The notes below the pieces were generated by a model, which was not told where the DNA came from, ran no database searches, and saw nothing but the letters and a program-made list of their open reading frames with translations. A DNA stretch of 42,223 nt from Laspinema sp. D2d (GTDB taxonomy: Bacteria; Cyanobacteriota; Cyanobacteriia; Cyanobacteriales; Laspinemataceae). The position numbers and the translations under genes are program-made. The stretch spans positions 39,282-81,504 of the forward strand of contig NZ_JAMXFC010000004.1 of NCBI RefSeq assembly GCF_025370755.1. The letters are read 5' to 3'. Of the stretch, positions 7,207-38,051 are shown one piece after another. How positions within the stretch are numbered: position 1 is the first letter of the stretch; each line of letters begins with the position of its first letter.

Positions 7207-8193
7207 TTATAATAGATTTTGCTGTTTAATTTGAACAGCTAATTCCTGAATCATCGGAATGCAAACTGAATTACCAATCTGTTTATAGCATTCTCCGATA
7301 CTAGGATGTTTTTTGAAGTTATCGGGAAATCCCATAATTCGATAACACTCATTTAGGGTTAATTTCCGCACCGCATTTTCTTCAGGAATGTAAATAAAAA
7401 ATCGGCCTGATGTTTCCTGGGAGGGTAAGGTTGGATGAACCCCTTTCACGGAATAAATGCGATTAGGTTGTCTATGAACTCTGGATAGATGTTCTGTATT
7501 GGGCCTAATTCCGGTTTTCCAGATATTTTTATTACGATACCCGACAAAAATTAAGCCTGAAGTTTGGGGTTTAGGATGTTCGATTAACGTGTATTCATCC
7601 GGCTTCAAATACTCAAAATGTCCTTGTTTATCTAAATATACTTCAAGGCTAGGGGGAGAAAATTGTTTCGAGATTAAATCAAAATTAAACTTTTGATTTA
7701 AAGTACCAATAATAATAACCCGCTCTCGATTTTGGGGTAAATTGAAATCTTTAGCATTCAATAAACTATAAGTAACGCAATAACCTAAATCTTCTAAGGA
7801 ATAAAGAATTGTATCTAATACTTTGCCTTGGTCAAGATGAAGGAGGTGCTTAACATTTTCCAAGACAATCACTTGAGGTTTTTTTATTTCAATGATTTTG
7901 CATAAGTGAAAAAATAGGGTTCCTCGCGTATCCTTAAACCCATTTCGTTTTCCAGATATACTAAAAGGCTGACAAGGGAAACCCGCTGTTAGCACATCGT
8001 GATTTGGGATGTTTTTAATATCTAAAGTCGTAATATCTTTTTCCGGTAACTCCCCAAAATTTTGATAATAAACTTTCTGGCAAGCGTCATTAATTTCACA
8101 AGAGTAAACACAATGATAGCCTGCTTTTTCAAAGGCAAGACGGAATCCTCCAATTCCAGCAAATAAGTCAATAAATTTAATTGAATCAGTCAC
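7207..8193 (-). CDS. DNA (cytosine-5)-methyltransferase (Dcm/type II m5C MTase), apparently orphan
   Basis: Motif I FIDLFAGIGGF, motif IV FPCQPFS and motif VI ENV are all present in canonical order. The gene is strongly AT-rich compared with its flanks. Confidence 0.9.
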   Translation of the reverse strand: MTDSIKFIDLFAGIGGFRLAFEKAGYHCVYSCEINDACQKVYYQNFGELPEKDITTLDIKNIPNHDVLTAGFPCQPFSISGKRNGFKDTRGTLFFHLCKIIEIKKPQVIVLENVKHLLHLDQGKVLDTILYSLEDLGYCVTYSLLNAKDFNLPQNRERVIIIGTLNQKFNFDLISKQFSPPSLEVYLDKQGHFEYLKPDEYTLIEHPKPQTSGLIFVGYRNKNIWKTGIRPNTEHLSRVHRQPNRIYSVKGVHPTLPSQETSGRFFIYIPEENAVRKLTLNECYRIMGFPDNFKKHPSIGECYKQIGNSVCIPMIQELAVQIKQQNLL

Positions 8194-11484: not shown

Positions 11485-11727
11485 CTACCTTACTCTATCG
11501 TTCCCTAGGCTGGGGAGGCCGATCGCCAGATTTGTTCTGGAGATCTTGCAATTGCGCTTCCGCTGGCGTTTCTATGTCCTCCGGTGAGGAGTCTTTTGGA
11601 GTGGACCATTGTAGTTTTTCCCGCAGGATGCCGGAATCTCAATGGGTCCCTCAGAGTCAGGATTCACAGGATCCATGACAGGGCGAACTTCCCTTAGTTT
11701 CCCCCCTTGCCTACAAAAAATCATGTT

Positions 11728-12786
11728 CTAAAACCCACAATCAGGGTTGAAAGAGAGTCGCCAATCTCGGTTAAAACCTGAGCCAAATGTTGCATAGCTG
11801 TAGCCAAGGCGATAGGGAAAATGTCCTAGAGGAATCGTTAGAGGGTCTACCCCATTGTAGTCAGTCTCCTGATGATGGATAGAAGACCACCCTACTCTTC
11901 TTTCAAACTGTGCATAATGTTCCCAGTTTAATTCTTTGGACTTATTGCCCGTTGCTTTTAATAGGGGGGTCTGAATACTGAAACCAAAGCGATTATTAGA
12001 ATATTTGCGCCATAGTCGATCAATTTCTTGGAGTTCAGAACAGGGAATTTCTGAGATTAATAAAGAAGCTGTAGCGCTTCTTGTATCTTCTCGATAGGGT
12101 TCTAGGACCTCTAAGGTTTTCCAGTCGGCTTCAACCCATTGCTTCAGGCGCAAGGCATCAATGATTGGGCAGTATTTCAAGCGATGGGTAATCGATGCCA
12201 CACCGTTCCAAACCCCACCACTTACCCCATTTCCAGTAGTCGCAGGTAAGTGACCCTCGGGGGCAGATTTAGAGAACTTAAGTTTCTGGTAAGTCCGCCA
12301 CTGACCCTGCCTCCGCCAACCCACGCGATCGCCAAATTTCTCGGCAATTTCTGGGGTATAATTTCCGACAACGCCACCGACTGATTCCCAAATCTGTTGT
12401 TGCCGGATAAAGCCAAAGCGATTATCACTGTAGTAATTCCAGAGGTTTGCTAAACTGTGCAAATCCTCACAATCTAGTTGTTCTACATCAGCTTGACTTA
12501 ACCACCCTTCCTGTTCTCGTTGGCTAATTTTTAATAAAATCTGAAACGTTTCGCGATCGGCGGCTTTCCATTCCTGATTCTTCAGCAAAGCTTGCAAGGG
12601 TTTATAGTTAATATTGGCAGTGGAGGTGAGCGGAAATCCCGGATCTGCTTTAGGACTCGGTTCCCACCAACAGGATTGTAAACTCAAACCCAAAATTAGG
12701 GCGACTGCCTTAATTTTTTTTCCGGCACCAGGAGAGATTAATCGACTGATTGTAAAAGCCACTATCAAAAATATTTTCAATCCCAT
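11728..12786 (-). CDS. GUN4 domain-containing protein (two tandem GUN4-like domains) with N-terminal signal/lipobox
   Basis: Two copies of the GUN4 signature, ...LWNYYSDNRFGFIRQQQIW... and ...LWRKYSNNRFGFSIQTPL.... The N-terminus has a hydrophobic helix followed by LSLQSC. Confidence 0.7.
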   Translation of the reverse strand: MGLKIFLIVAFTISRLISPGAGKKIKAVALILGLSLQSCWWEPSPKADPGFPLTSTANINYKPLQALLKNQEWKAADRETFQILLKISQREQEGWLSQADVEQLDCEDLHSLANLWNYYSDNRFGFIRQQQIWESVGGVVGNYTPEIAEKFGDRVGWRRQGQWRTYQKLKFSKSAPEGHLPATTGNGVSGGVWNGVASITHRLKYCPIIDALRLKQWVEADWKTLEVLEPYREDTRSATASLLISEIPCSELQEIDRLWRKYSNNRFGFSIQTPLLKATGNKSKELNWEHYAQFERRVGWSSIHHQETDYNGVDPLTIPLGHFPYRLGYSYATFGSGFNRDWRLSFNPDCGF

Positions 12787-14152: not shown

Positions 14153-14833
14153 TTAAGAAACCAGTGCCTTTCCGGGATAGATTTCCCGCTTGCGAGTTTT
14201 TTTATCCAAGTAAATCCACTCTAAATCTTGAAGGCGGTTCACCAAATTAGAGATACTCACCCCCAATTCCTCTCGCATTTCGTATAAGTGAGACCAATAG
14301 GTTAAATCCCGTCCTTGGCGTTTCTCTTCTAAAATCCGTTTCGGCATCAGTAGGCAACCCGCAAAATACTGTGCTTGCCACTCCATAGACTCTAACACCG
14401 AGGCATGATTCAGGGGACTGTTCCCTTCCCGACTCCCGCGACAGACAAAGGGTTCATCGGTTGCTGGGGTGAGGTCTGTGATCAGGCGATCGCCCGTTTC
14501 CGTCGTCGCCTCATGATTAATATGAAGCACCCAATGGCCGATTTCATGCGCTAGGGTGGATTCCTGGAATCCCTGGGGTTTATCGAGAATCTCTTCATTG
14601 ATCTCGATACAGCGTTGCAGGGGGAGAATCCTCGCTGCGATCGCCCCTTGTTCATCCGGTGGAATCCGTTCCCATATCACCCCGAGGTCAAAAAAATCCG
14701 CAACCAAAGTCACGTCAAACGGCCAGGAAGGAGCAAATTGCTCCCCGCGCTGTGCCATTCGCCTGAGTACATTATTCGCCTGATACTCAATCGCTTCTTT
14801 GCGATAATAGCGATACGGCTTAAAAATACTCAA
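14153..14833 (-). CDS. ImmA/IrrE-family zinc metallopeptidase (DUF955)
   Basis: HEXXH zincin motif LAHEIGHWVLH. 226 aa. Begins 3 nt after the stop of the upstream XRE gene. Confidence 0.85.
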   Translation of the reverse strand: MSIFKPYRYYRKEAIEYQANNVLRRMAQRGEQFAPSWPFDVTLVADFFDLGVIWERIPPDEQGAIAARILPLQRCIEINEEILDKPQGFQESTLAHEIGHWVLHINHEATTETGDRLITDLTPATDEPFVCRGSREGNSPLNHASVLESMEWQAQYFAGCLLMPKRILEEKRQGRDLTYWSHLYEMREELGVSISNLVNRLQDLEWIYLDKKTRKREIYPGKALVS

Positions 14834-14835
14834 GA

Positions 14836-15177
14836 TTATTCCCCCTCGCTTGCCACCTGCTGAAACACCTTCTCTGCAAAATCAGGATTTTCTCGCATCC
14901 GCCGCAGCAATGCAGGCATCGCTTTATAGTTTTGCTTGAGAAAATCCTCGTACCGTTGCGGAAGACGACCGGCGAGGACGATAGACTCCTCCTCATCCAA
15001 ATCCAGATTCCGCGCCAAAGACCGAATCACTTCCTCTTTAGGTGCATAGTCTGCGCGATCGTTTTCCAGCTTGGACAAGTATGTGAAATCGACATCCAGA
15101 AGCTTGGCAAGCTCCCGTTGGCTATATCCCTTGTCCTTGCGCGCTTGACGAATTAGTTTACCAAAACTCTGTTCCAC
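14836..15177 (-). CDS. XRE-family helix-turn-helix transcriptional regulator (ImmR-like)
   Basis: HTH_XRE signature IRQARKDKGYSQRELAKLLDVDFTYLSKLEN. 113 aa. Co-operonic with the ImmA-like protease. Confidence 0.85.
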   Translation of the reverse strand: MEQSFGKLIRQARKDKGYSQRELAKLLDVDFTYLSKLENDRADYAPKEEVIRSLARNLDLDEEESIVLAGRLPQRYEDFLKQNYKAMPALLRRMRENPDFAEKVFQQVASEGE

Positions 15178-17040: not shown

Positions 17041-17351
17041 TGGGTAACTAAAAAAAAATCCGCATTTAGCCGCTGCGGGTTTTCATCCGGGAAGGTTGAG
17101 AAATTTAATCTTTTTTTAAAGGATTTATTTTTCTTGACAACGAGTAGTTTTCGGTTAAAATCTGGACAAGGTAAGTAGAAGGGGGAAAAGAGTTCTCCCG
17201 GGAAATAGTACCCTTCCAGTGATTGTTTTTGGCTACAAACTTAGGTTTAACCCATCCGTGAATCCCGGGATGAGTTAATCACCCCCTATTCTAAATTACC
17301 CATTTGATTAAGCTTTTCCCATCTAAACTATTGGAAATAGGAGGAAAATTC

Positions 17352-18350
17352 ATGTCCCAAACCCCGGTTAAAGACAGTAAAGCTCAAATTTTAGCCCAAT
17401 TTCAACAACTCCTTGCCAGTCGCCAAGGGACTGCCTCTAAAGTCGCCACGAAAGAGGAGGAAGCAGAAAAGGAGAAAAATAAAGAACTCCTCGCCGTTGC
17501 CTCGACTTACACCATTGATACCATTGTCAAAGGATTAGCAGATCTGCAACTGGATTTTGGGAGTATTGTCACCCAACTAGGGGAGAAACTGAACACAGAA
17601 ACTGCTAAACTGGACGAACTTAAACGGGCGATCGCCATTGAAACCGATCGCCTAGAAGAATTACGCCAAATTCGAGTTGTTGCCGATGCGCTGCATATTC
17701 TCACCCAAGAACATCAAGAAAAGTTAGCACTGCTGGATCATCAGGCGGCTTTACAACAAGAAGCCATTGAAATGGACCAAGCACAAAAGCGCAAAGCATG
17801 GCAAAAAGAACAAGAAGAATTTGACAGCTTGGTGCAAGAACAAGATGAAGCTATCACCAAAGAACGGAAACAGGAAGCCGCCGATTATGATTATGAACGG
17901 CTGCGAATTCAAGAATTAGAAACTGATGAATATGAAGAACGGAAGCGGCAACAAGAGCGTGAGTTAAAAGAGATTGCCCGCGAGAAACAAAAGAACTGGA
18001 CGGAACGCGAGAAATATTTAACTGAAAATCAAGCCGAATTTACAGCCAATCAGCAGAAGATTGCTGGATTCGAGGAAGAATTGAAACAAGCTTATATTAA
18101 AGCCAAAGAAGAGGCGATCGCGGAAGTGAAACGGGAAGCCAAAGTTAAATCTGACCTGTATGAGAAAGAGTGGGAAGGTACGAAGCAAGGGTATGATTTA
18201 ACCCTGCAATCCCTCAATAGCAATCTTGAGCGCCAAACTCAACAAATTGCGGATATTAACGCCCAGCTACAAGCGGCGACGCGACAAGCTCAAGATTTAG
18301 CAATGCGAGCGTTTCAAACCTCATCCAATGTGAGTTCTGGCTCGAAATAA
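17352..18350 (+). CDS. coiled-coil-rich protein (paralog A)
   Basis: AGGAGG Shine-Dalgarno precedes the Met at 17352. Extremely E/K/Q-rich heptad-type sequence. Shares N- and C-terminal blocks with the next gene. Confidence 0.7.
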   Translation: MSQTPVKDSKAQILAQFQQLLASRQGTASKVATKEEEAEKEKNKELLAVASTYTIDTIVKGLADLQLDFGSIVTQLGEKLNTETAKLDELKRAIAIETDRLEELRQIRVVADALHILTQEHQEKLALLDHQAALQQEAIEMDQAQKRKAWQKEQEEFDSLVQEQDEAITKERKQEAADYDYERLRIQELETDEYEERKRQQERELKEIAREKQKNWTEREKYLTENQAEFTANQQKIAGFEEELKQAYIKAKEEAIAEVKREAKVKSDLYEKEWEGTKQGYDLTLQSLNSNLERQTQQIADINAQLQAATRQAQDLAMRAFQTSSNVSSGSK

Positions 18351-18363
18351 TAGCAAACAATCG

Positions 18364-18410
18364 CACCCTCAAGGGTGGATTTACAGGGACAAAGCCTGCC
18401 TCCGCAGGCT
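18364..18410 (+). terminator. double hairpin after coiled-coil gene A
   Basis: The two hairpins are caccc-tcaa-gggtg and agcctgc-ctcc-gcaggct. Confidence 0.45.
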
Positions 18411-18501
18411 AATCCAGGAATTGCAAGGTAGGAATTAACGGTTTTGGGTTAATTCTGACTGCTTTTCACAATTAAACCTCAATATTATTTGGAGAAGTCG
18501 G

Positions 18502-19599
18502 ATGGCGAAAAAAATTACCGCTAAAAGTACCAAAGCGGAAATCATGGAAGTTTTAGAGGAATTAGAAAAGGAAAACTCAGGACTAGAGGCGCAAGTCAAG
18601 CAACTCGCTAAAGAAAAACAAGCAGCAGCAAAAAACATCATTTCAGCGGTTAAAGAAGTTAATTCATCTGAATCAAAAATCCCTATGAATCCCACCCCAA
18701 CTGCGCAGCAGAAAATCAATCAAACCATTGAAAGTTTGCAACTGTTACAATTAGGGTTTGGCGGTGCCGTGAGTGATTTGTCGGAGCGGCTGACTTCGGA
18801 AGCGGCTAAACTGCATGAATTGGAAGAATCGGTCAATCAGGAGGTAGAAAACCTTCAAACTTTACATAATTTGGAAGTCTCGGAGGAGACGTTAGACGGG
18901 TTAATCCAAACCTATCAAGAACGAGCGAAAACCTTTCAAATCGAAATCACCGATCGCCAGGATACCTTAGAGCAGCAAATCCAAACCCTGAAGAAAACCT
19001 GGGAAAAAGAACAAGAAACCCATCAACGTGAGAGTAAAGAACGCAATACCACCAGGCAGAAACAGCAACAGCGGGATGCTGAAGAATACCGCTATAGCTT
19101 AGAACGCGATCGCCACCTGGCGCAGGAAGAATATGAGCAAACCCAAAAAAGCTTGTATCAAGAACTAGCAGAAATCCGCCAAACCCAGGAACAAGAATGG
19201 ACTGAACGGGAAAACGCGATCGCAGAACGAGAGAAACAGTATGCCGAAGCTAAAGCCAAAGTCGAGGCACATCCCAAAGAATTGGAAACCAACATCAAAA
19301 ATGGCAAAGACAGTGGACGGAATATTGGCAACTATCAAGCCAAAATCGCCTCAGATTTACGAAGCAAAGAAGTAGAAGGACTGCAACGCTCTTATCAACT
19401 GCAAATTAGCGCATTAGAAGTGAGCATTAACAACCAAGAAGAACGCATCAAGACCCTGACTAAACAATTGGAATCGGCACTCAAACAGGTGCAAGATTTG
19501 GCAGTCAAGGCGATCGAAGGGACATCCAATGCCAACTCCTTCCAAGCCTTACGGGAAATTGCCGTGGAACAAGCCAAAAATCTGCCAAAAAGCAAATAA
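18502..19599 (+). CDS. coiled-coil-rich protein (paralog B)
   Basis: Shared blocks with paralog A: LQLGFGGAVSDLSERLTSEAAKLHEL versus LQLDFGSIVTQLGEKLNTETAKLDEL. The C-terminal QDLA(V/M)(K/R)A block is also shared. Confidence 0.7.
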   Translation: MAKKITAKSTKAEIMEVLEELEKENSGLEAQVKQLAKEKQAAAKNIISAVKEVNSSESKIPMNPTPTAQQKINQTIESLQLLQLGFGGAVSDLSERLTSEAAKLHELEESVNQEVENLQTLHNLEVSEETLDGLIQTYQERAKTFQIEITDRQDTLEQQIQTLKKTWEKEQETHQRESKERNTTRQKQQQRDAEEYRYSLERDRHLAQEEYEQTQKSLYQELAEIRQTQEQEWTERENAIAEREKQYAEAKAKVEAHPKELETNIKNGKDSGRNIGNYQAKIASDLRSKEVEGLQRSYQLQISALEVSINNQEERIKTLTKQLESALKQVQDLAVKAIEGTSNANSFQALREIAVEQAKNLPKSK

Positions 19600-19703
19600 T
19601 CGAATTTTAGTGTTATTTTAACTAGGGGCAATTGATTAATTGTCCCTAGTTTTCTGTATTTAAGACGGGTAAATCCTCATCAAACGTTGAGAACCGAGGC
19701 TCC

Positions 19704-21131
19704 ATGCAACCAAACTCCATGCAACCAAACAACGAGGGTTGGATTAAAATTGCTGAATATATTTCCCTAGCTGGATCAGTTGCTGGTTTGGTTGCTGCAT
19801 TGGTTCTGGGAAGACTCAGTTATGCAGCCGTTGTTTTATTTCTCTCAGCCTGGTTAAATTTGGTCTATCGCCACCGATTGCACTTGATCACGCAGCAACG
19901 ACTCAGCAATGCCATTACGGAAGTGGATCAGAGTATAGATGAGTTTCAGGTGGCGATCGCCAATCGAGTTGGGGAACTCAGCGAAGAAATCTCCCACCTC
20001 AATGAAAACCTCCTCGACAAACCCGAGAAGGAGCAAATAGAGCGATTACTTTCCCCCATCCTCAACCTAGAACAACAGTTAATGGTGTTGGATGCAGCGT
20101 TAGCGCAGATTAGCAAGCATCTGGAACCTCCCATCGAGGAATTGCGCGATACCCTCACCGCCACCGAAGCAGACTCGCCAGAAAAAGCCACAACCGTAGG
20201 TAGCAGTCGTCTTCCCGAGGAGATTGCTCAACTCTCGGAACAAATTTCCCATCTCGGCGAGGCGATCGAGAAACTCGAACCCCGACGAGAAGGCAGCGAA
20301 ATCGTCCCCGTCCCTCCCCAAATGCCGATCGTGCCGAATGTCTGGGGTGTACCCGCCGTCAGCGAAGCGAACCCTAATCTACCCATGATCGATGCCTCGC
20401 CGGTTTCCTATGCCAGCGCCACCTCCCCCACCCCATTACCGACCTGGGGAAATCCCTATGATAAACTAAACCCTGAGACTGGCTCACCCCAAGCATTTCC
20501 AGCGAATCAAGCGCTGACTGTATCATCCCAGCCAGCGATCGCCTATTCCGGCTATCCCAACCCGGCGATCGGCGGCGAACCCGCCTCCAACATTGACTTA
20601 CGAGGAGCCATTCTCATTGGCTGTAGCCTCACCCAAGCCAATTTTGCGGGAGGGGATCTCCAAGAAGCCAACCTCAGTCAAGCCGACTTACGCGGTGCCG
20701 ACTTACGGGAAGCCAACCTTGCCGGTGCGAACCTCAGCGGTGCCAACCTGAATGAAGCCGACTTAGACGGTGCCAATCTTGCCGGTGCCGACTTGCGCGG
20801 CGTCAACCTCAGAAATACCCTGTTCAGAAATGTTTATCTCAGTGGCGCAAACCTCAGCGGATCCGACTTAAGCGGATTGGATTTAAGTGCGCTCAATCTC
20901 AACAGCGCCACCCTGATGGAAACCAATCTATCCAGTGCCAATTTACAGCAAACCCAATTAATCGGTGCGAATCTTGCCGGTGCGAATCTTGCCGGTGCTA
21001 ACCTAGAATCGGCTAACCTCACCCATGCCAACCTCACTAACGCCAACCTGATCGGCGCTAATTTTGGCGAAGGGGAAAATCAAGCTCAACTCGATGGCGC
21101 AATTCTCCCCGATGGCAGTATTTATGAGTAG
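19704..21131 (+). CDS. membrane-anchored pentapeptide-repeat protein
   Basis: Two N-terminal TM helices, a coiled-coil segment, a Pro-rich linker, then about 30 tandem A(N/D)LxG pentapeptide repeats. Confidence 0.85.
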   Translation: MQPNSMQPNNEGWIKIAEYISLAGSVAGLVAALVLGRLSYAAVVLFLSAWLNLVYRHRLHLITQQRLSNAITEVDQSIDEFQVAIANRVGELSEEISHLNENLLDKPEKEQIERLLSPILNLEQQLMVLDAALAQISKHLEPPIEELRDTLTATEADSPEKATTVGSSRLPEEIAQLSEQISHLGEAIEKLEPRREGSEIVPVPPQMPIVPNVWGVPAVSEANPNLPMIDASPVSYASATSPTPLPTWGNPYDKLNPETGSPQAFPANQALTVSSQPAIAYSGYPNPAIGGEPASNIDLRGAILIGCSLTQANFAGGDLQEANLSQADLRGADLREANLAGANLSGANLNEADLDGANLAGADLRGVNLRNTLFRNVYLSGANLSGSDLSGLDLSALNLNSATLMETNLSSANLQQTQLIGANLAGANLAGANLESANLTHANLTNANLIGANFGEGENQAQLDGAILPDGSIYE

Positions 21132-21393: not shown

Positions 21394-22161
21394 ATGACCT
21401 ATTGCTTAGGTATCCTCACCCGTTTTGGTTTAGTGATCGCCGCTGATTCGCGTACCAATGCCGGAGTTGATCATATTTCCACTTACCAAAAATTGTTTGA
21501 TTTTTCCGTACCCGGAGATCGAACTATTCTGTTATGTACCTCGGGAAATTTATCTATAACCCAAGGAGCGATCGCTGCCTTAGAGCAAGATATTAAACAT
21601 CAAGAAGAAATCAATCTTCATACCCTCCCTAGTTTGACCGAAGTCGCTCGTTATATCGGCAATAAAATCCGCGCTATCCAAGATCAGGATAGACCTTGGT
21701 TAGAACGCGATCGCATCGATTATAAATGTAGTATATTACTGGGCGGTCAAATTAGGGGAGAAGAACCTAATCTGTATTTAATTTACAGTCAGGGAAACTT
21801 CATTCATGCCACCAAAGAAACGCCCTTTCTCCAAATTGGAGAAACTAAATATGGTAAACCTCTCTTAGACCGCACCCTCACCGCAAATACTCCCTTAGAA
21901 GCTGCTGCAAAATGTGCCTTGCTCTCCATCGATTCTACCATGAAATCTAATATTTCCGTAGGACCGCCCATTGATATTATCATGTACCATACAGATTCCT
22001 TCGCCATCCGCCATCGGTTGAGATTGAGACTCGGCGATCCCTATCTAGCTAAAATTAGAAAATTATGGGAAATCTACGTTAAACAAGCCTTTGATGAGAT
22101 GCCAGATGTGGAATGGGAATATGATGAAGAGGAGGTAAAAGAAGATATTCTGATTGACTAA
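21394..22161 (+). CDS. Anbu (ancestral beta-subunit) proteasome-like Ntn-hydrolase
   Basis: Begins MTYCLGI, so a Thr is exposed after Met removal. Proteasome beta-subunit-like fold length (255 aa). Adjacent to alpha-E and circularly permuted ATP-grasp genes, as in Anbu operons. Confidence 0.7.
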   Translation: MTYCLGILTRFGLVIAADSRTNAGVDHISTYQKLFDFSVPGDRTILLCTSGNLSITQGAIAALEQDIKHQEEINLHTLPSLTEVARYIGNKIRAIQDQDRPWLERDRIDYKCSILLGGQIRGEEPNLYLIYSQGNFIHATKETPFLQIGETKYGKPLLDRTLTANTPLEAAAKCALLSIDSTMKSNISVGPPIDIIMYHTDSFAIRHRLRLRLGDPYLAKIRKLWEIYVKQAFDEMPDVEWEYDEEEVKEDILID

Positions 22162-22273
22162 AGGGAATTACCACCAAGGGAAGAACATTCGTAGTAACGA
22201 CTGAAGTCGTTTCCTCATGACTTAGCCACTCTAAGTCACGAGGATTCACCCCATCTAACCCATCTTTAAACAA

Positions 22274-23296
22274 TCAAGACCCGATCGCCGTCTGAGTTTG
22301 CGTCTGAGTCTGAATGGAAGCAATAGGTTTAATTTCCTCCACTATCTCTACAGCGGGTTCAAGAGCAAAATAAGTATTAAAAATACTCTGACCCACGCCA
22401 TTGAGTTGCTCTTGCAGGGTATTAATAAACTCATGTAAACCCGTTTCAAAAATATCGGCAATGGTCATATATTCTAATTGCGATCGCAACCGACCTAAAG
22501 CCCGTTCTGCCGGGTCTCTCCAAGTTCCCACCGGAGTTCCAGTAATTTCATGAAGCGATCGTTCCGCATTCACAAAACAAAACCGAATTGAGCGCGGAAA
22601 ATCTCGATCCATAATCAAAAACTCCGCCACTAGCGTGGGATTAATCCGATGCTGGCGCTTCCGGTACATCTCATAAGCACTCGCCGATCGCAATAACGAC
22701 ATCCATTGAATTTCATCCAGGGTCGTTCCCACATCATAGACCGACGGCAGCAAAATATAATACTTTACATCCAAAATCCGAGAAGTTTTATCTGCACGTT
22801 CCAACAGTCGGCCAATATGTCCAAAATGCCACCCTTCATTATGGGTCATTGTCGCATCCATGATGCCTGAAAACAAGTGACTTGCCAATTTAACCTGGGT
22901 AAAAAAATCATGGAGAGAGGCTAAATTTTGTTTCGGTGCAGCCTCTTTCACCATCATATAAAAGGCATTGACCTGTTCCCACATTTCCGAAGAAATCACT
23001 TCTCGGACCGATCGCGCATTCTCCCGGGCGATTTGTAAGCAAGATAAAATCGAATTGGGGTAATCGCGATCGAAGGCCAAAAATTGAATCACATTTTCTG
23101 GTAGCACTTCCCCATATCGTTCTTGAAACAGGGGTGAATCTCCCGTGATTTTCACCAAGGGATCCCATTGTTGGCTCATCCCCGTGGGAGAATCCAGAAT
23201 TAAATTGAGATTAACATCAATGAAACGGGCAATATTTTCCGCCCGTTCTACATAACGATTCAGCCAATAAATTGAATGTGCAACGCGACTCAGCAT
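22274..23296 (-). CDS. alpha-E domain (DUF403) protein
   Basis: N-terminus MLSRVAHSIYWLNRYVERAENIARFIDVN is the hallmark of alpha-E proteins encoded beside circularly permuted ATP-grasp enzymes. Confidence 0.8.
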   Translation of the reverse strand: MLSRVAHSIYWLNRYVERAENIARFIDVNLNLILDSPTGMSQQWDPLVKITGDSPLFQERYGEVLPENVIQFLAFDRDYPNSILSCLQIARENARSVREVISSEMWEQVNAFYMMVKEAAPKQNLASLHDFFTQVKLASHLFSGIMDATMTHNEGWHFGHIGRLLERADKTSRILDVKYYILLPSVYDVGTTLDEIQWMSLLRSASAYEMYRKRQHRINPTLVAEFLIMDRDFPRSIRFCFVNAERSLHEITGTPVGTWRDPAERALGRLRSQLEYMTIADIFETGLHEFINTLQEQLNGVGQSIFNTYFALEPAVEIVEEIKPIASIQTQTQTQTAIGS

Positions 23297-23449
23297 GAGA
23301 ATTTTTAGAGTTTAAAGTTGAGAATTTTGAGTGTTTTAACCTGAGACAGTCATGCTTGGAAACCCGCGCCAAATTCCAAGGGTTCAGCGGTTGGCTGTCA
23401 GGAATGTCCCTCCCTCTCACCCCTCAATCCTGACGCTTAACCCCGTCGT

Positions 23450-24883
23450 TTATTCCGTCACGACCCAAGTATCTTTACTCCCCCCGCCTTGGGAAGAATT
23501 AACTACTAAAGACCCTCGTTTTAAGGCAACCCGAGTTAATCCACCGGGGTTAACATAGATATCTTTGCCATAGAGGATATAGGGTCTCAAATCGACGTGA
23601 CAGCCTTCAATATGGCTATCAACTAACGTAGGAACCCGAGACAGGCAGAGGGTAGGTTGGGCGATATAATTGCGGGGATTGGCGCGAATGCGATCGGCAA
23701 AATCCTCTCGTTGTTCTGCTGTCGCTTGAGTACCAATTAACATCCCATACCCGCCCGATTCATTCGCCGCCTTGACTACCAATTGATCCAAATTAGCCAA
23801 CACATGATCTAAATGTTTGGGATTCCCACATAAATAAGTCGGAACATTGGGAATAATTTGGTCTTCTCCCAGATAATATCGAATCATCTCCGGGACAAAA
23901 GCATAAATTGCCTTGTCATCGGCAACACCCGTTCCCAAAGCATTAGCAATACCCAATCGACCCGATCGATAAACCTCCATCAAACCCGGTACACCTAACA
24001 AAGAATCCGGGCGAAATGCGAGAGGATCAATAAAATCATCATCAATCCGACGATAGACCACATCAACGCGCTTTAGCCCCTTCGTCGTCCGCATTTGCAA
24101 GTAGCCATCGGCAACGACTAAATCCTTCCCTTCCACCAGTTCTACCCCCATTTGCTGGGCTAGAAATGAATGTTCAAAGTAGGCCGAATTATAAATTCCG
24201 GGGGTAATCACCACCACATTGGGATCGGGTAAATTATCCGGGGCGAGATTGAGTAACGTTTCTAACAGATAACTGGGATATTCATCAACAGGTTGAATAT
24301 CCATCGTTCTAAAAACTTGGGGGAATGTACTTTTCATCACCCGCCGGTTTTCTAAAACGTAGGAAACCCCTGAAGGACATCGCAAATTATCTTCTAAAAC
24401 ATACCACTGCCCATCTTTGTCTCGGACTAAATCAGTGCCCGTGATGTGACACCAAATTCCCTTGGGCGGTTTTAACCCGATGCAAGGTTTCAGAAATCCT
24501 TTAGCCGACTGAACCAATTCGAGAGGAATGACCCCATCTTTAATGATTTTTTGGTCCCCATAAATATCAGCAATAAATAGATTTAAAGCTTCAATTCGTT
24601 GCTTCAGTCCACGATTGAGAGTGGCCCATTCGTTCGCTGCTACAATACGGGGAATAATGTCAAATGGAAAAATTCGCTCGTTGCCTTCGCTATCCCCATA
24701 AACCGTAAAGGTAATCCCCAGCTTAAACATGGCGCTTTGTGCCGCCTGTTGTCGCTGGAGAAGTTCTCCATCGGATAGAGAATTGATTCTGTCTATCAAG
24801 GGGTTCGCCTGGGGGCGAGGTTTTCCCTTCTCGATAAACAGTTCATCGTAAAAATCGCCTGGATCGTATGTGTCAAATCGCAC
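23450..24883 (-). CDS. circularly permuted type-2 ATP-grasp protein (DUF404/DUF407 amidoligase)
   Basis: 477 aa with N-terminal [16 protein letters not shown]. Family-typical length and position upstream of alpha-E. Confidence 0.8.
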
Positions 24884-25421
24884 AGTCTGCTCTCTAACGC
24901 TGTCCCCTACTTTAGGATAAATGGAGTGGATAGAATACCCGCAGACTATTAATTTTTATGAACTTGCCCGTTTTCAATTCAGGCCGATCGCTGTTTTAGA
25001 ATACTACATGACTAGAGGTTTCTAGGGTTAGGGGAGGGTAAAACGGTCCTGAATGCAGAAAAGAGTCGGGTTTTATCGCGATCGCTTTTTCAACAAATCC
25101 AGACATTTCTCCAAGTCTGGGAGTACAAGTGGGATAAAAAACCGGGTTTTTCTACCCACACTTTCCCCCTCAACCGGAGAACCCGAGTAGAGGGACCCTC
25201 AGTTTGGGCGGAAAATTGCCATGCCGGTTAGTACCCGGTTTGAATGGGAAGTTTTTTCAGGATTTGCACCGGAAGAGCAAGAGGCAGAGTCTATCAAATT
25301 CTGTCCTACTTTTAAATTGCCATGAACCAGCAATGATCCAGATCTACTCTCTCAATTCTAGGGTTTATGTTTACTCTAATTTGAGTCAATAATTTCAGGA
25401 ATAATATTCAGTGAGCACGAC

Positions 25422-25943
25422 TCAATGAGGATTGGACTGAGTTAGACGATGGAGGAGATCGAGAAAATCTTCAAAAATCGGTTGAAAATTGGTGGGGGTG
25501 AGTAGGGGGACATGGACGAAGAGGGCATTGATTTTTTTGGGGTGATGATTCAGATGATTTAAAACAGCATAATAGAGGGCTTCGCAGACAAATTTTCCGG
25601 CATCTTCGCTGATTTCAGTGAGTTTTAAATCTTCGAGAAGTGCAGGAAGATTTAATGGGGTGACGATCGCCTCGTTGCCCGATCTCGCCTGTTTTTCTAC
25701 GGTGAGTTTTTGCCGACATTCTGCCATACCGCAACACACCACCAGATCCGGTTGCAGTTCGTTGATTTTAGCGATCGCCTGTTTGGGGGCCTCTTGAAAA
25801 TCTACGGGTAATTTCCGCAGGAAGTGCAGATCATGGGGAATCCCCCTCACCTGGGATACTTTCTCTAATAAGTCATCCGAGGAGTTAGTTTGGTGATGGG
25901 ACATCCAAATATCAAACGAGGTTAGGAGTATAGTTTGAGTCAT
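25422..25943 (-). CDS. peptidase C15 (pyroglutamyl-peptidase I-like) family protein
   Basis: Aligns by eye to Pcp: ILLTSFDIW / VLLTGFDPF, PDLVVCCGMAECRQKLTVEKQA / PDIIICVGQAGGR..ITPERVA, catalytic Cys block AGKFVCEALYY / AGTFVCNHLFY, and His block FVHVPL / FIHIPY. Start set at the internal Met. Confidence 0.6.
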   Translation of the reverse strand: MTQTILLTSFDIWMSHHQTNSSDDLLEKVSQVRGIPHDLHFLRKLPVDFQEAPKQAIAKINELQPDLVVCCGMAECRQKLTVEKQARSGNEAIVTPLNLPALLEDLKLTEISEDAGKFVCEALYYAVLNHLNHHPKKINALFVHVPLLTPTNFQPIFEDFLDLLHRLTQSNPH

Positions 25944-26008
25944 AGCAATGGGTCCGTTACCCGTTATAATTAAAAGAGCCTCAGTCAAGTATTTTAAGGA
26001 AAAAGGCA

Positions 26009-26653
26009 ATGCCGGTAATCGCCGTCATCGATTATGATATGGGCAATCTGCACTCCGTCTGTAAAGGATTGGAAAATGCAGGGGCCACACCCAAAATCAC
26101 CGATGTGCCTGGGGAAATTGAACAGGCAGATGCGGTTTTGTTGCCCGGAGTCGGGTCCTTTGATCCGGCGATCCAACATTTGCGATCGCGGGATTTAGTC
26201 TCCCCGGTTAAGGATGCGATCGCCTCGGGAAAACCGTTTTTAGGGGTTTGTCTGGGATTGCAAATCCTGTTTGATAGTAGCGAAGAAGGAAAAGAACCCG
26301 GTTTAGGCATTATTCCCGGGGTGGTTCGTCGCTTTAAATCCGAACCGGGTTTAACGATACCTCATATCGGCTGGAATCGTCTGGACTTCACACAACCGGA
26401 GGTTCCCCTGTGGCAGCATTTGCAGCATCAGCCTTGGTTGTATTTTGTGCATTCTTATTATGTTGACCCCATCGATTCTGTTGTGACTGCCGCTACTGTA
26501 ACCCACGGCAGTCAAACCGTCACCGCTGCGATCGCCCGGGAGAACCTCGTTGCCGTCCAATTTCATCCGGAAAAATCTTCTACTGCCGGGTTGCAAATGT
26601 TAGCGAACTTTGTCAAACAAATCGAATTGCGATCGCTGGCAATGTCTCATTAA
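26009..26653 (+). CDS. hisH: imidazole glycerol phosphate synthase, glutamine amidotransferase subunit
   Basis: MPVIAVIDYDMGNLHSVCKGLE..., class-I GATase Cys box GVCLGLQ, HVHSYY. Confidence 0.92.
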   Translation: MPVIAVIDYDMGNLHSVCKGLENAGATPKITDVPGEIEQADAVLLPGVGSFDPAIQHLRSRDLVSPVKDAIASGKPFLGVCLGLQILFDSSEEGKEPGLGIIPGVVRRFKSEPGLTIPHIGWNRLDFTQPEVPLWQHLQHQPWLYFVHSYYVDPIDSVVTAATVTHGSQTVTAAIARENLVAVQFHPEKSSTAGLQMLANFVKQIELRSLAMSH

Positions 26654-27232: not shown

Positions 27233-28135
27233 TTATTTAGAGACGTAGTGAACCCACAAATCACCATCAGGACCGCAGATCTGTTTCATCATGCCGTAAG
27301 AGTAGACTAAGCCTTTGCCACTCACCGTGGTGTCATATCCCCAGGAGAACCACTCTCCATAAGGGTCATTGACAATCCAACCTTTCTCGTTATATCCCTT
27401 AATAACAATAATGTGTCCCGATCGGCTAAACCAGCCATGTACGATAATGGGTTTCCCCGCTTCTAGCCATTTTTTGACATCGGACCATTTGGCATCGGGT
27501 TGAAAATCATCTTTGTACCCATACCGATGGATCAGTTTTGCCAAATCCGTTGGAGAATGACGGGATAACCCATTGTTGAGACAAAACTGATAGAGTTCGT
27601 CTTCTAACTGTTGACCTTTGGTATTTTTAAGGCGGTGCCCTAAATAACCCAGGCACATGGCTACAGAGGTCACATTGCAAGATCCATGAGGATTCCACAC
27701 ATTATCCAGTTGGGATAAATAGGGAATATTTAAATCAATGGTGGTTGGTTTTGGCGGCGCAGTTGTTACGGTGGTTGTCTGTTCTAGGGTTGCAGTACGT
27801 TCGGTGGTGAGGACCGCAGTCGTGACGCGATCGCCATTAGTGGTAGAGGCTTCTCGGCTGGAAGTAACTGTCACCGAAGAGGTGGAGACGGTGGTAGAAA
27901 CTTGAGCATATTCGGGGTTACGCCAAATTTGTAAAAATTCAGCATCGGACCGAAACAGATCCGGGTGAGTTTTTTCTAATTCCGCCTGGAGGTGTTTTAA
28001 TGCCTCATCCTGATGCGGTAGACCTTCATAATATTTGGCAACGTTGAGTAGAGAAATGTAGATGCTCATAATCTTGGGTGAATGAAGTGAATATGCGTCC
28101 GATTTGCTTGGAATTTGGCGGGCGATCGCCATCAA
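27233..28135 (-). CDS. secreted papain-like (C39-like) cysteine-peptidase domain protein, paralog of the next gene
   Basis: Shared N-terminal module (KYYEGLPHQDEALKHLQ...FLQIWRNP). C39_2-like core [28 protein letters not shown]...HIIVIKGYNEKGWIVNDPYGEW. Thr/Ser-rich linker. Confidence 0.65.
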   Translation of the reverse strand: MMAIARQIPSKSDAYSLHSPKIMSIYISLLNVAKYYEGLPHQDEALKHLQAELEKTHPDLFRSDAEFLQIWRNPEYAQVSTTVSTSSVTVTSSREASTTNGDRVTTAVLTTERTATLEQTTTVTTAPPKPTTIDLNIPYLSQLDNVWNPHGSCNVTSVAMCLGYLGHRLKNTKGQQLEDELYQFCLNNGLSRHSPTDLAKLIHRYGYKDDFQPDAKWSDVKKWLEAGKPIIVHGWFSRSGHIIVIKGYNEKGWIVNDPYGEWFSWGYDTTVSGKGLVYSYGMMKQICGPDGDLWVHYVSK

Positions 28136-28182
28136 GAATTAGAGTAATCCAGAAGAATTTATCCGGGGCGATCGCATCTTTC

Positions 28183-29727
28183 TTAAAGAATGCTTCGTTG
28201 CAATTGTTGGACGACGGGCCAGAAATGATCCCATCCATTCAGTCCGCCATTGACTAAGCGGCGAACCCGTTTCCAGTCTCCCTCTTGTGCAGCCACATCA
28301 ACCTGACGTTCCCAAAAATATTCCACCAAGATTTTTGCAGAAAGGTCCGGGTCTAATGCCAACTCGGGTTGGTCTTCTAAAGGAGCACCTAATTTCAACC
28401 CATAGTGGCGATAATTTGCACGACCTGTAATTTGAATAAATCCTCGTCCATGATATTTCACCCCATCTCCAGGATGGGTATTTCCTAAGTCAAGACGACC
28501 TTCATACATCGAGTGAAAATAGGTGTTCCCACCCCATTCTCGAATTGGACGGAATCCAGCGGTTTCTACGCCGATTGTAGCGAGGGTAGCAATCACCGTG
28601 GGTTTGTTGAGAATTCCTTTCTGTTCTAAGGCTTTCATCACCCCAGGCATATAAGTCCGAATATCAGAAAGGGGTGCATTCAAAACTTGGGCGGCTTTTT
28701 CATCGGAAATCAATTCTTTGACTGGATTGAAACCGGGAACCTCTTTCGCCTCAATTAAGGCTTTTGCCAGTTCTCGCGCGATCGGGTCTGCGGAAACTTG
28801 ATAGGCTTGTGCAAAGCGATTCAGGGCTGATTCTGTAATTGGACCATATTTTCCATCCGCCTCTCCAGTTAATAAACTCAGACTCCGTAATCGCACTTGA
28901 ATTTGGATCACTAAAGTGGTATCGGTGACCACTTCTTTTAAAGGAATGGCTTTGTTTTCTTGTAAAATATCTTGCAGACGCAGGCCCGTCACTGTAAGGA
29001 CATTTTGGGGTGAGGCGGTTATGCGCTTATCTGATACAAAATGAATCCAATTATCTCCATCGGGACCGCAGAGATCTTTCATCATTTTATAGGAATAGGT
29101 TAAACCCGCCCCACTCCGACTGGTGTTATATCCAGTGGAGAACCATTCTCCGTAGGGGTCATGAACAATCCACCCTTTATCGTTATAACCAATAATGGTA
29201 ATAATATGTCCAGACCGGGTAAACCATCCGTGGGAAATACAGGGTTTTCCGGCATCAAGCCACTTTTTCACATCGTCCCATTTAGCATTGTACTGAAAAT
29301 TATCTTCATAGCCATAGGACTTAATCACTTTCGCCAAATCTTCGGGATTATGTCGCGAAAGTCCATTGTTAATCATGTATCGATAGAGTTCGTCCTCTAA
29401 CTGTTCTCCCGTGGCGGGATTTTTGAGGGCTTTCCCAAAGAAACCTAGGCACATCGCCACACAGGTGACGTTGCATGATCCGTGGGGATTATTGATATTA
29501 TCAATCTGAGATAAATAGGGAACGTTCAGTTTAACGGGTTCTTTTGGCAGTTGGGGAACCACGGGGGGTTGTGCCGGGGGTTTTCTCCAAATTCTGAGGA
29601 ATTCAGAGTTTTCTGAGAGCAGTTCAGGACGGTTTTTGGCGATTTCGTCTTGGAGAAGTTTCAAAGCTGCTTCTTGCTGAGGTTCAGCCTTGTAGTATTT
29701 AATGACATTGACTAAGGAAACATTCAT
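28183..29727 (-). CDS. multidomain cell-wall hydrolase: C39-like cysteine peptidase, PG_binding_1, and GH19/lysozyme-like domain
   Basis: N-terminal half is paralogous to 27233-28135. A PG-binding repeat ([19 protein letters not shown]). A C-terminal GH19-like block ([15 protein letters not shown]). Confidence 0.7.
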
Positions 29728-30107: not shown

Positions 30108-30575
30108 TTAAATTGCCTCAGTCTCTTTTCCAGTAATCAGCGCTTGTAGGAATTCAGGATCATCGATCGCTGCTTGATGAATTCGGCTCAACATCGTTGC
30201 AGCGGTGTTTTTATTTACCTCGATTTCCTGGGCTAATTGACGCACACTGACTTTCTTGGAAGCCGTTAAAACGATGGCAATAGCTTGAAACCACTTAGAC
30301 AATTCTACATGAGTTTTATGAAATAAAGTACCCACGGTTACGCTATAGGATGTAAAACATTGATTGCAATGATATCGGCTTTCATTTTTGAGGGCGGTTG
30401 ATTTTTGGGAACTACAATAAGGGCATTGAGGTTTACCCCCCCAGCGAATTTGTTCAAGGTACAAGGTTGAGGTTTTATACATTTTGAAGCTTCCTTTTTT
30501 CAACTCCTCTTCATACAATTCACCCTGATTTTTTAGGTCTCGTTGTGCGATCGCCCTTCCCCATGAGGAAAGCAA
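30108..30575 (-). mobile_element. IS1595-family transposase, N-terminal zinc-ribbon/HTH fragment (truncated; likely pseudogene)
   Basis: CPYCSSQKST...RYHCNQCFTSYSVTVGTLFHKTHVELSKWFQAI matches the IS1595/ISXO2 N-terminal Zn-ribbon plus HTH. No DDE domain follows. An extremely AT-rich 350-nt tract lies downstream. Confidence 0.6.
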
Positions 30576-37288: not shown

Positions 37289-37322
37289 ACAGGGAATCCC
37301 GAGTAAAAATTGGTACGCTCAG

Positions 37323-38051
37323 TTACTGTAAAAAGCCTCCTTGATAGAAATAATAGGTCGCCATTGGGATAACCGTCGCGAGGACTAACAGGACGATCAC
37401 CACCATTGTGGCATTGCCTGTATCGGTTTCTTCGGCGGTGGCAAAGGTGCGTTCAATGTTCAAGCTGGTATCGATAATCGGGGGTCCGGGGTCCGGTTGA
37501 CCGGAAAGGACGGCAATCATGCGATCGCTAACATCGGTTAAAGCTTGATTGTATTTATCCCCCTCTCGCAAGGGGACTTGCAGGGTTTCTTGGGCGACAC
37601 TTTCAGCAATTTCCGGGGTTAAGAGGGATTTGATGTCATCTCCCGTCCGGATGGCGGAATTATTTGTGAGGGTATCGACCACCACTAAGGTTTGATGCGC
37701 CCCTTCCTCTGGGGTTGGAAACCATTTTTCAAAGAGTTTTTCGGTAAAACTGTCAATGGTTTCCCCATAGTCTAGGCGGCGAATGGTGACGAGACGAACT
37801 TCGTTGCCGGTGTCTTTTTGCAGGGCACTAAGGGCCTTGCTGAGATTGCCTTCGGTAAGGCGACTGAGGACTTCGGCATCATCAATGGTCCAGGTGCGAT
37901 CGCCTGCATGGAGAATCGGCATTTGATAGACCCCAGTTGCCGCAGCGGGTGCCACTGCCACGAGGGTTGCTAAGGCGATCGCCGCGATGGATAACAGGAG
38001 TCCGGTGAATCCGGCTTTCCAGGGGGTGATTCGTTGAAGGATCTGTTTCAT
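37323..38051 (-). CDS. TPM-domain protein (TLP18.3/Psb32-like lumenal phosphatase family) with signal peptide and C-terminal TM anchor
   Basis: Signal-like N-terminus, central TPM-like region, C-terminal helix MVVIVLLVLATVIPMATYYF. Confidence 0.6.
   Translation of the reverse strand: MKQILQRITPWKAGFTGLLLSIAAIALATLVAVAPAAATGVYQMPILHAGDRTWTIDDAEVLSRLTEGNLSKALSALQKDTGNEVRLVTIRRLDYGETIDSFTEKLFEKWFPTPEEGAHQTLVVVDTLTNNSAIRTGDDIKSLLTPEIAESVAQETLQVPLREGDKYNQALTDVSDRMIAVLSGQPDPGPPIIDTSLNIERTFATAEETDTGNATMVVIVLLVLATVIPMATYYFYQGGFLQ

Follow-up and report, generated by a model that had tools for sequence, protein, structure and literature searches.

Anbu, a proteasome-like N-terminal-nucleophile (Ntn) hydrolase, belongs to an operon whose four genes keep a conserved order (PMC6376114) and code for ATP-grasp, alpha-E, transglutaminase-like and Anbu proteins; its descriptions by Valas & Bourne 2008 and by Iyer et al. 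2009 are cited here through PMC5666114 and PMC6376114. ATP hydrolysis has been shown for the ATP-grasp protein of Yersinia bercovieri (PMC6376114). As of 2021 Anbu had no known function (PMC8665760), and no literature on its function newer than this statement was found. Here we describe an Anbu locus of the cyanobacterium Laspinema sp. D2d, located on contig NZ_JAMXFC010000004.1 within a stretch of 42,223 nucleotides (nt), hereafter the 42-kb window, in which the genes for Anbu, alpha-E and ATP-grasp are followed by a gene for a C15 (pyroglutamyl-peptidase I-like) cysteine peptidase and by hisH. The locus is very probably the known cyanobacterial Anbu cluster minus its transglutaminase gene, with the C15 gene standing beside the ligase genes through inherited gene order next to a hisH/C15 pair.

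The Anbu cluster and its missing transglutaminase

The open reading frames (ORFs) of the window were listed and subjected to profile searches with Pfam and NCBIfam, the Pfam scans covering all ORFs of at least 110 amino acids (aa). The 255-aa protein encoded at 21394..22161 on the plus strand gave a weak Pfam Proteasome match (E=2.4e-7) ending at residue 192, whereas phmmer matches to solved structures were decisive (5loy, 1.6e-85; 5nyw, 9.4e-67; 5lox, 2.6e-66; 5nyj, 3.4e-60; 5nyf, 1.1e-59), and for this reason the protein was assigned as Anbu; 5loy is a designed consensus Anbu, and the other four matched structures are natural Anbu proteins. The alignments to the solved chains span residues 2 to ~240 and, in running to residue 238-242, past the end of the Proteasome match, point to the presence of the C-terminal helical extension (H5). 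The N-terminus reads MTYCLGI, and Thr2, Asp18 and Lys33 fall opposite Thr1, Asp17 and Lys32 in the Anbu of Yersinia bercovieri (5lox), the residues named as candidate catalytic residues of Anbu (PMC6376114).

On the minus strand, converging on Anbu, lie the genes for the 340-aa alpha-E protein, the ATP-grasp partner (22274..23296; full-length PF04168 match, E=2.6e-111), and for a circularly permuted type-2 ATP-grasp amidoligase of 477 aa with a GTG start (23450..24883; PF14403, E=4.9e-173; PF04174, E=9.1e-148). In the ORF listing the two are separated by 153 nt, and the stop codons of alpha-E and Anbu by 112 nt (22162..22273); ATP-grasp followed by alpha-E on one strand is the canonical order of this pair in the Anbu operon. 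The ATP-grasp protein is 97% identical to that of an uncultured Laspinema genome bin (L001) and 98% identical to that of Laspinema olomoucense. All four families that the sequence-only reading had named (Anbu, alpha-E, circularly permuted ATP-grasp and C15) hold, with matches far above chance, and its comparison with the described Anbu operon is borne out by family and residue evidence for Anbu, ATP-grasp and alpha-E, including the catalytic Thr, Lys and Asp of Anbu, all of which are kept in the alignment to 5lox. No PADLOC match to anti-phage defence models was obtained for the four proteins.

An ATP-grasp-centred scan of a genome collection yielded 80 loci with flanks of up to 10 kb, onto which the window proteins and ORFs of ~285 aa located between alpha-E and Anbu were mapped, and the contexts of the closest named ATP-grasp homologues (L167-L169 and L171-L173) were looked up individually. 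With cyanobacterial-type Anbu defined by >50% identity, 24 loci carry it, the window included. The alpha-E gene is found directly 3' of the ATP-grasp gene in nearly all of the 80 genome loci. In 22 of the 24 loci Anbu faces the ligase genes from the opposite strand, in convergent orientation, the exceptions being L012 and L032, where it is upstream on the same strand; convergent Anbu was found in L031, L167, L171 and L172 too. The convergence had been taken as atypical in the sequence-only reading; however, it is the normal layout in cyanobacteria. Because Anbu has no conserved same-strand gene ahead of it across cyanobacteria beyond the Laspinema group, cyanobacterial Anbu is a stand-alone gene, placed tail-to-tail with a three-gene ligase unit. 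ATP-grasp/alpha-E pairs accompanied by neither transglutaminase nor Anbu are common in other cyanobacteria (L020, L028, L033, L034, L037, L040 and L068), and therefore the ligase pair is a stable core to which Anbu and transglutaminase are optional; ATP-grasp and alpha-E are evidently the minimal conserved unit. A search for a conserved partner upstream of ATP-grasp in other lineages returned lineage-specific neighbours only.

The ~285-aa ORFs between alpha-E and Anbu are transglutaminases carrying PF08379 and PF01841, and they occupy this position in 18 of the 22 convergent loci. The four loci that lack one are the window, L001, L002 (a genome bin, 96% relative) and L085 (an 81-95% relative of the window), all of them members of the Laspinema group with at least 95% ATP-grasp identity. 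The Pfam scans detected no ORF with PF01841 or PF08379 in the window, and tblastn searches of it for a transglutaminase remnant gave a best E of 0.29 with 19 cyanobacterial queries and no match at E<=1 when the three closest were used as queries; across the window, L001, L002, L003, L084, L085, L168 and L173 the best E was ~0.1. Laspinema, Kamptonema and Ancylothrix are not named among the top 120 of 7635 transglutaminase homologues, in a collection where only about a quarter of the proteins are named. The absence of the gene from the Anbu cluster, already reported from the letters of the stretch, is thus real. The closest outgroups, Oxynema aestuarii (L167), Phormidium sp. CCY1219 (L171) and Oxynema sp. 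CENA135 (L172), keep a 287-375-aa transglutaminase in exactly that position, between alpha-E and Anbu, and its absence, specific to the Laspinema group, is probably a recent loss by clean deletion.

The 112-nt gap now separating alpha-E from Anbu contains a GTAACGACTGAAGTCGTTTC palindrome at 22194-22213 and a 13-14-bp hairpin at ~22213-22245, and it folds stably on either strand (minimum free energy -28.6 and -37.9 kcal/mol, z -3.3 and -3.1); palindrome and hairpin could terminate transcription from both directions. The corresponding gap of L001 and L002 is filled by 370-560 bp of short palindromic repeats, of the GTAACGACTGAAGTCGTTAC type, which are not gene debris, and in L085 a ParA/MinD-like ATPase gene (11622-12686) sits at the former transglutaminase position. 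Given these repeats and this ParA-like gene, the alpha-E/Anbu site has turned over repeatedly since the deletion. The repeats, for example GTAACGACTGAAGTCGTTAC and TGTCACGGCTGAAGCCGTGACA, lie at 3000-3590 in L001 and at 12620-13020 in L002, with tandem duplications in L001 and a single copy in the window.

One may ask whether what is left of the cluster is a functionless, decaying remnant. One of the four canonical genes is missing, the gap between alpha-E and Anbu gathers repeats and insertions in relatives, and the alpha-E gene of L002 is split across two reading frames (11588-12612, with matches to residues 1-260 and 253-340), either by a frameshift or by an assembly error. However, the window ORFs are intact and of full length with their catalytic residues present, and the ratio of nonsynonymous to synonymous substitution rates (dN/dS), calculated against L001, L002 and L085, was 0.05-0.08 for Anbu, 0.06-0.09 for alpha-E and ~0.04 for ATP-grasp, at a dS of 0.3-0.7. 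All three genes are under strong purifying selection without sign of decay, and we regard a decaying remnant as very unlikely.

Several further arrangements were seen around these genes. Upstream of Anbu on its own strand, at 17304-21131 of the window, two paralogous coiled-coil proteins of 348 and 365 aa without Pfam match are encoded, and next comes a 475-aa protein whose N-terminal part is hydrophobic and coiled-coil and which carries HetL-like pentapeptide repeats; this arrangement is conserved in the Laspinema group only. In a group of Phormidesmis/Leptolyngbya-like loci (L005, L007, L008, L018, L028 and L029), a conserved ORF of ~180 aa, of low complexity and rich in Gln, Thr, Met and Pro, stands directly upstream of ATP-grasp on the same strand, about 430-980 nt upstream. 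Non-cyanobacterial loci of Desulfobacterota, Planctomycetota and Verrucomicrobiota (L046, L053, L055, L058-L060, L063, L070-L075, L078 and L079) carry a second, divergent ATP-grasp/alpha-E pair on the same strand, ~4.5-6 kb from the first, with 27-41% (ATP-grasp) and 23-29% (alpha-E) identity to the window proteins. A distant Anbu (25-30% identity) was found in a Burkholderiales bin (L050, 5885-6580) and a Desulfomonilaceae bin (L061, 12467-13171), directly after alpha-E on the same strand and before the transglutaminase, an order that differs from the published one.

The C15 peptidase-like gene beside the ligase genes

The C15 gene is read from the minus strand. Its mechanical ORF (25422-26009) starts at a TTG at 26009 that coincides with the ATG of the divergent hisH gene; since homologues begin MTQTILL, the start is probably the ATG at 25943, which gives a 173-aa protein (25422..25943). 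The PF01470 match scored 54.3 bits (E=2.4e-14) against a gathering cutoff of 22.7. Glu83, Cys120 and His144 line up with the TPERVA, FVCN and FIHIP motifs in the pyroglutamyl-peptidase I (Pcp, MEROPS C15) from Bacillus amyloliquefaciens (1aug), so that the Cys and His blocks noted from sequence extend to a full Glu-Cys-His triad, which is invariant in 18 family members. The AlphaFold2 model had a predicted local distance difference test (pLDDT) score of 90.5; the top 34 Foldseek matches were all Pcp structures, the best being 3lac (E=3e-14, template modelling (TM) score 0.85, 21% identity).

Compared with Pcp (1aug and 3lac), the window protein has the same fold, the Glu-Cys-His triad, the FVC motif and aligned aromatic residues of the pyroglutamate pocket, but it is ~35-40 residues shorter (173 versus ~210 aa), lacks the loop after the catalytic Glu and shares ~21% identity; the Gln of the GQAGG motif of Bacillus Pcp aligns with Met. 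It also scores far under the Pcp equivalog cutoffs of NCBIfam (69.6 bits versus 199 and 61.4 versus 201.75, for TIGR00504 / NF009676). Subfamily members of ~170 aa number at least 1919 in the protein collection, and the named ones are almost all cyanobacterial. The window protein is a member of this shortened cyanobacterial Pcp-like subfamily, which is paired with hisH, and is a putative peptidase.

The divergent neighbour, hisH, encodes the imidazole glycerol phosphate synthase glutaminase subunit (26009..26653, plus strand; TIGR01855, E=1.2e-61, 208 bits versus a cutoff of 105), and in the window ~65 nt separate it from C15. A C15-centred survey comprised 80 metagenome loci and six loci from protein look-ups. 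Of the 62 with enough flank, 58 have hisH as the gene upstream of C15 and divergent from it, at C15 identities as low as 44%; no literature on this pairing was found. An ATP-grasp gene follows C15 in only 4 of 57 loci, and in the ATP-grasp-centred survey C15 lies upstream of ATP-grasp in 2 of the 72 genome loci whose upstream flank reached 1.2 kb or more. In neighbour-joining trees, seven of eight C15-linked loci form one clade for ATP-grasp, with L105 just outside, and they fall into one region for C15. The sequence-only reading had correctly placed a C15-like gene ~540 nt upstream of ATP-grasp on the same strand (the measured gap is 538 nt), and the linkage does recur in other genomes, confined to one Oscillatoriales lineage; its proposal of a suggestive functional pairing with the ligase finds no support in these counts, in which hisH is the constant partner.

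Within that lineage, L167, L171 and L172 carry the six-gene block hisH(-) C15(+) ATPgrasp(+) alphaE(+) transglutaminase(+) Anbu(-), with 84% ATP-grasp and 76-79% Anbu identity to the window. In L084 (Ancylothrix), L173, L168 ('Microcoleus' sp. FACHB-68) and L169 (M. vaginatus WJT46), hisH, C15, ATP-grasp and alpha-E are followed by a convergent era gene, and Anbu is absent; the conserved stretch of gene order thus also holds housekeeping genes unrelated to the ligase (hisH and era). In true Microcoleus (L081-L083) the hisH/C15 pair is present and ligase genes are missing from its surroundings. In L168 and L169 a sodium:dicarboxylate symporter (SDF) family gene (PF00375; 8586-9884 and 8534-9835, respectively) stands between ATP-grasp and alpha-E on the same strand, an insertion that may hint at an amino acid or dicarboxylate as ligase substrate.

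These gene orders fit a simple history. The ancestor, as in Oxynema and Phormidium sp. CCY1219, would have had the complete six-gene block; the Laspinema lineage would have lost the transglutaminase gene by a clean deletion, with purifying selection maintaining the others. ATP-grasp and alpha-E would form a two-gene unit in that order, with Anbu separately transcribed and converging on it, and the place of C15 beside the ligase genes would come from the ligase unit lying next to an ancient hisH/C15 pair in one Oscillatoriales lineage. From family knowledge, as summarised in PMC5666114 and PMC6376114, ATP-grasp with alpha-E would turn a carboxylate into an activated acyl-phosphate at the expense of ATP and make an amide bond on a peptide, protein or metabolite, and Anbu, with Thr1 as nucleophile, would cleave an amide bond in the ligase product or in tagged substrates.

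Some points weigh against this account. Within the source genome the search for the transglutaminase covered the window, and the gene may have been relocated elsewhere in that genome instead of lost. The biochemical steps are drawn from family membership, and purified Anbu showed no activity, with no peptidase activity detected in vitro (PMC6376114). In addition, the C15-ATPgrasp junction survives in at least six named genera while the outer flanks, which differ between genera, were reshuffled, and L003 (Oscillatoria sp. PCC 10802, which the protein collection labels Kamptonema formosum) and L101 keep it intact although hisH has moved away, to a distance of 5.5 kb in L003. Such survival could reflect selection rather than inertia.

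The last point would be expected if C15 had been recruited as a true accessory of the ATP-grasp/alpha-E ligase within a single lineage of Oscillatoriales (Laspinema, Oxynema, Kamptonema/PCC 10802, Ancylothrix and relatives), its adjacency being kept by selection; C15 might, for example, act on the ligase product by trimming or releasing its N-terminal pyroglutamyl or gamma-glutamyl residue. The ligase product would then bear an N-terminal residue of pyroglutamyl or gamma-glutamyl type, which would be a first chemical handle on the product of an Anbu-associated ligase. ATP-grasp has C15 as its immediate upstream neighbour on the same strand in the window, L002, L003, L084, L085, L101, L105, L115, L167, L168 and L171-L173, and C15 is also upstream on the same strand in L169, though there an MNT/HepT-type toxin-antitoxin pair (PF01909 + PF01934; 5935-6592) intervenes; the catalytic Glu, Cys and His are invariant. 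However, the linked loci all belong to one lineage and so amount to about one evolutionary event, 53 of the 57 C15 loci have no ATP-grasp gene downstream, 70 of the 72 ATP-grasp loci have no C15, and the unrelated hisH and era are conserved in the same block. The junction itself has accepted insertions, namely the toxin-antitoxin pair of L169 and a 58-aa ORF in L168. C15 is under looser constraint than the ligase genes (dN/dS 0.19-0.28 versus 0.04-0.09), and linked C15 proteins are no closer to one another than to unlinked ones (47-60% identity).

The 538-nt spacer between C15 and ATP-grasp (24884..25421, minus strand) likewise speaks against a dedicated partnership. Only the ~160 nt beside the ATP-grasp gene align with the 96-97% relatives, spacer length varies from 198 to 542 nt among relatives, and a terminator-like hairpin with a T-run at 25158-25143 points to separate transcription units for C15 and ATP-grasp, as read from the sequence. 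A conserved element or small precursor ORF in the spacer was considered and rejected, with no alignment beyond the ~160 nt and no Rfam family; a promoter scan gave no more matches than were found in shuffled sequence. Taken with the survey counts, this makes recruitment of C15 to the ligase unlikely.

It could also be proposed that, by non-orthologous displacement, the C15 thiol peptidase now does the work of the thiol enzyme that was lost, the transglutaminase-like one, since both are Cys/His thiol enzymes and all eight C15-linked loci of the first survey lack a transglutaminase. This idea is scarcely credible: C15 and transglutaminase occur together in the same block of L167, L171 and L172, which rules out replacement of one by the other, and L012, L020, L028, L033, L034, L037, L040 and L068 lack transglutaminase and also C15. 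From the coexistence of the two genes in Oxynema and Phormidium sp. CCY1219 it follows that the C15 adjacency predates the transglutaminase loss, as expected for gene order inherited beside the hisH/C15 pair.

Other observations in the window

Further genes of the window include cyanobacterial housekeeping genes, among them GUN4, a HetL-like pentapeptide protein and ahcY. At 27233-29727 there are two tandem genes for C39_2/C70-like papain-fold peptidases, also present beside hisH in L085; one of them adds a peptidoglycan-binding domain and, at the C-terminus, a weak match of glycoside hydrolase 19-like type, and the two are probably cell-wall hydrolases. A C5 cytosine DNA methyltransferase gene (7207-8193), an M78 (ImmA/IrrE-like) peptidase gene with an adjacent XRE-type helix-turn-helix gene (14153-15177) and an IS1595-type zinc-ribbon transposase fragment (30108-30575) hint at mobile or defence-related DNA in other parts of the window.

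Nitrogen limitation induces Anbu in Pseudomonas putida (PMC5666114); for this reason NtcA-type sites (GTAN8TAC) were searched for, and none was found between 21 and 26 kb of the window. Over 3817-40858 nine such sites were observed where 3.0 were expected, and none of 100 shuffles reached nine; two overlapping copies (37303-37326) adjoin the start of a TPM-domain gene (37323-38051, minus strand).

Comparison with known systems

The Laspinema group and Oxynema/Phormidium sp. CCY1219 together provide a natural experiment, in which the same block of Anbu, ATP-grasp and alpha-E occurs, in genomes closely related to each other, without and with a transglutaminase. The strong purifying selection on Anbu where the transglutaminase is missing suggests that an adjacent transglutaminase is not strictly required by Anbu or by the ligase pair; Laspinema keeps the other three genes without need of the transglutaminase-like thiol enzyme. 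Models in which this enzyme is an obligatory step of a tagging pathway are thereby constrained. The comparison also corrects a tempting but weak inference of a C15-ligase link; its practical value is modest, and the biochemical function of Anbu is no nearer solution.

Set against the Anbu operon, the window keeps ATP-grasp, alpha-E and Anbu in the canonical relative order, and its Anbu retains Thr1, Asp17 and Lys32 and, as judged from the alignments, the C-terminal extension, likewise with no AAA+ partner; the transglutaminase gene of the operon is lacking. In proteobacteria the four genes form a single operon, whereas in the window they are not all co-directional, with Anbu on the opposite strand, a trait shared with other cyanobacteria. 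Compared with the ATP-grasp/alpha-E pairs that have neither Anbu nor transglutaminase (L020, L028 and L068, and, with C15, L084 and L173), the core ligase pair is common to both, and the window keeps Anbu. The nearest counterparts are the Oxynema and Phormidium sp. CCY1219 loci, which have the same block in the same orientation, but where they carry a 287-375-aa transglutaminase gene the window has 112 nt with hairpins. The locus is a lineage-specific, reduced and largely ordinary member of a known, still enigmatic cluster.

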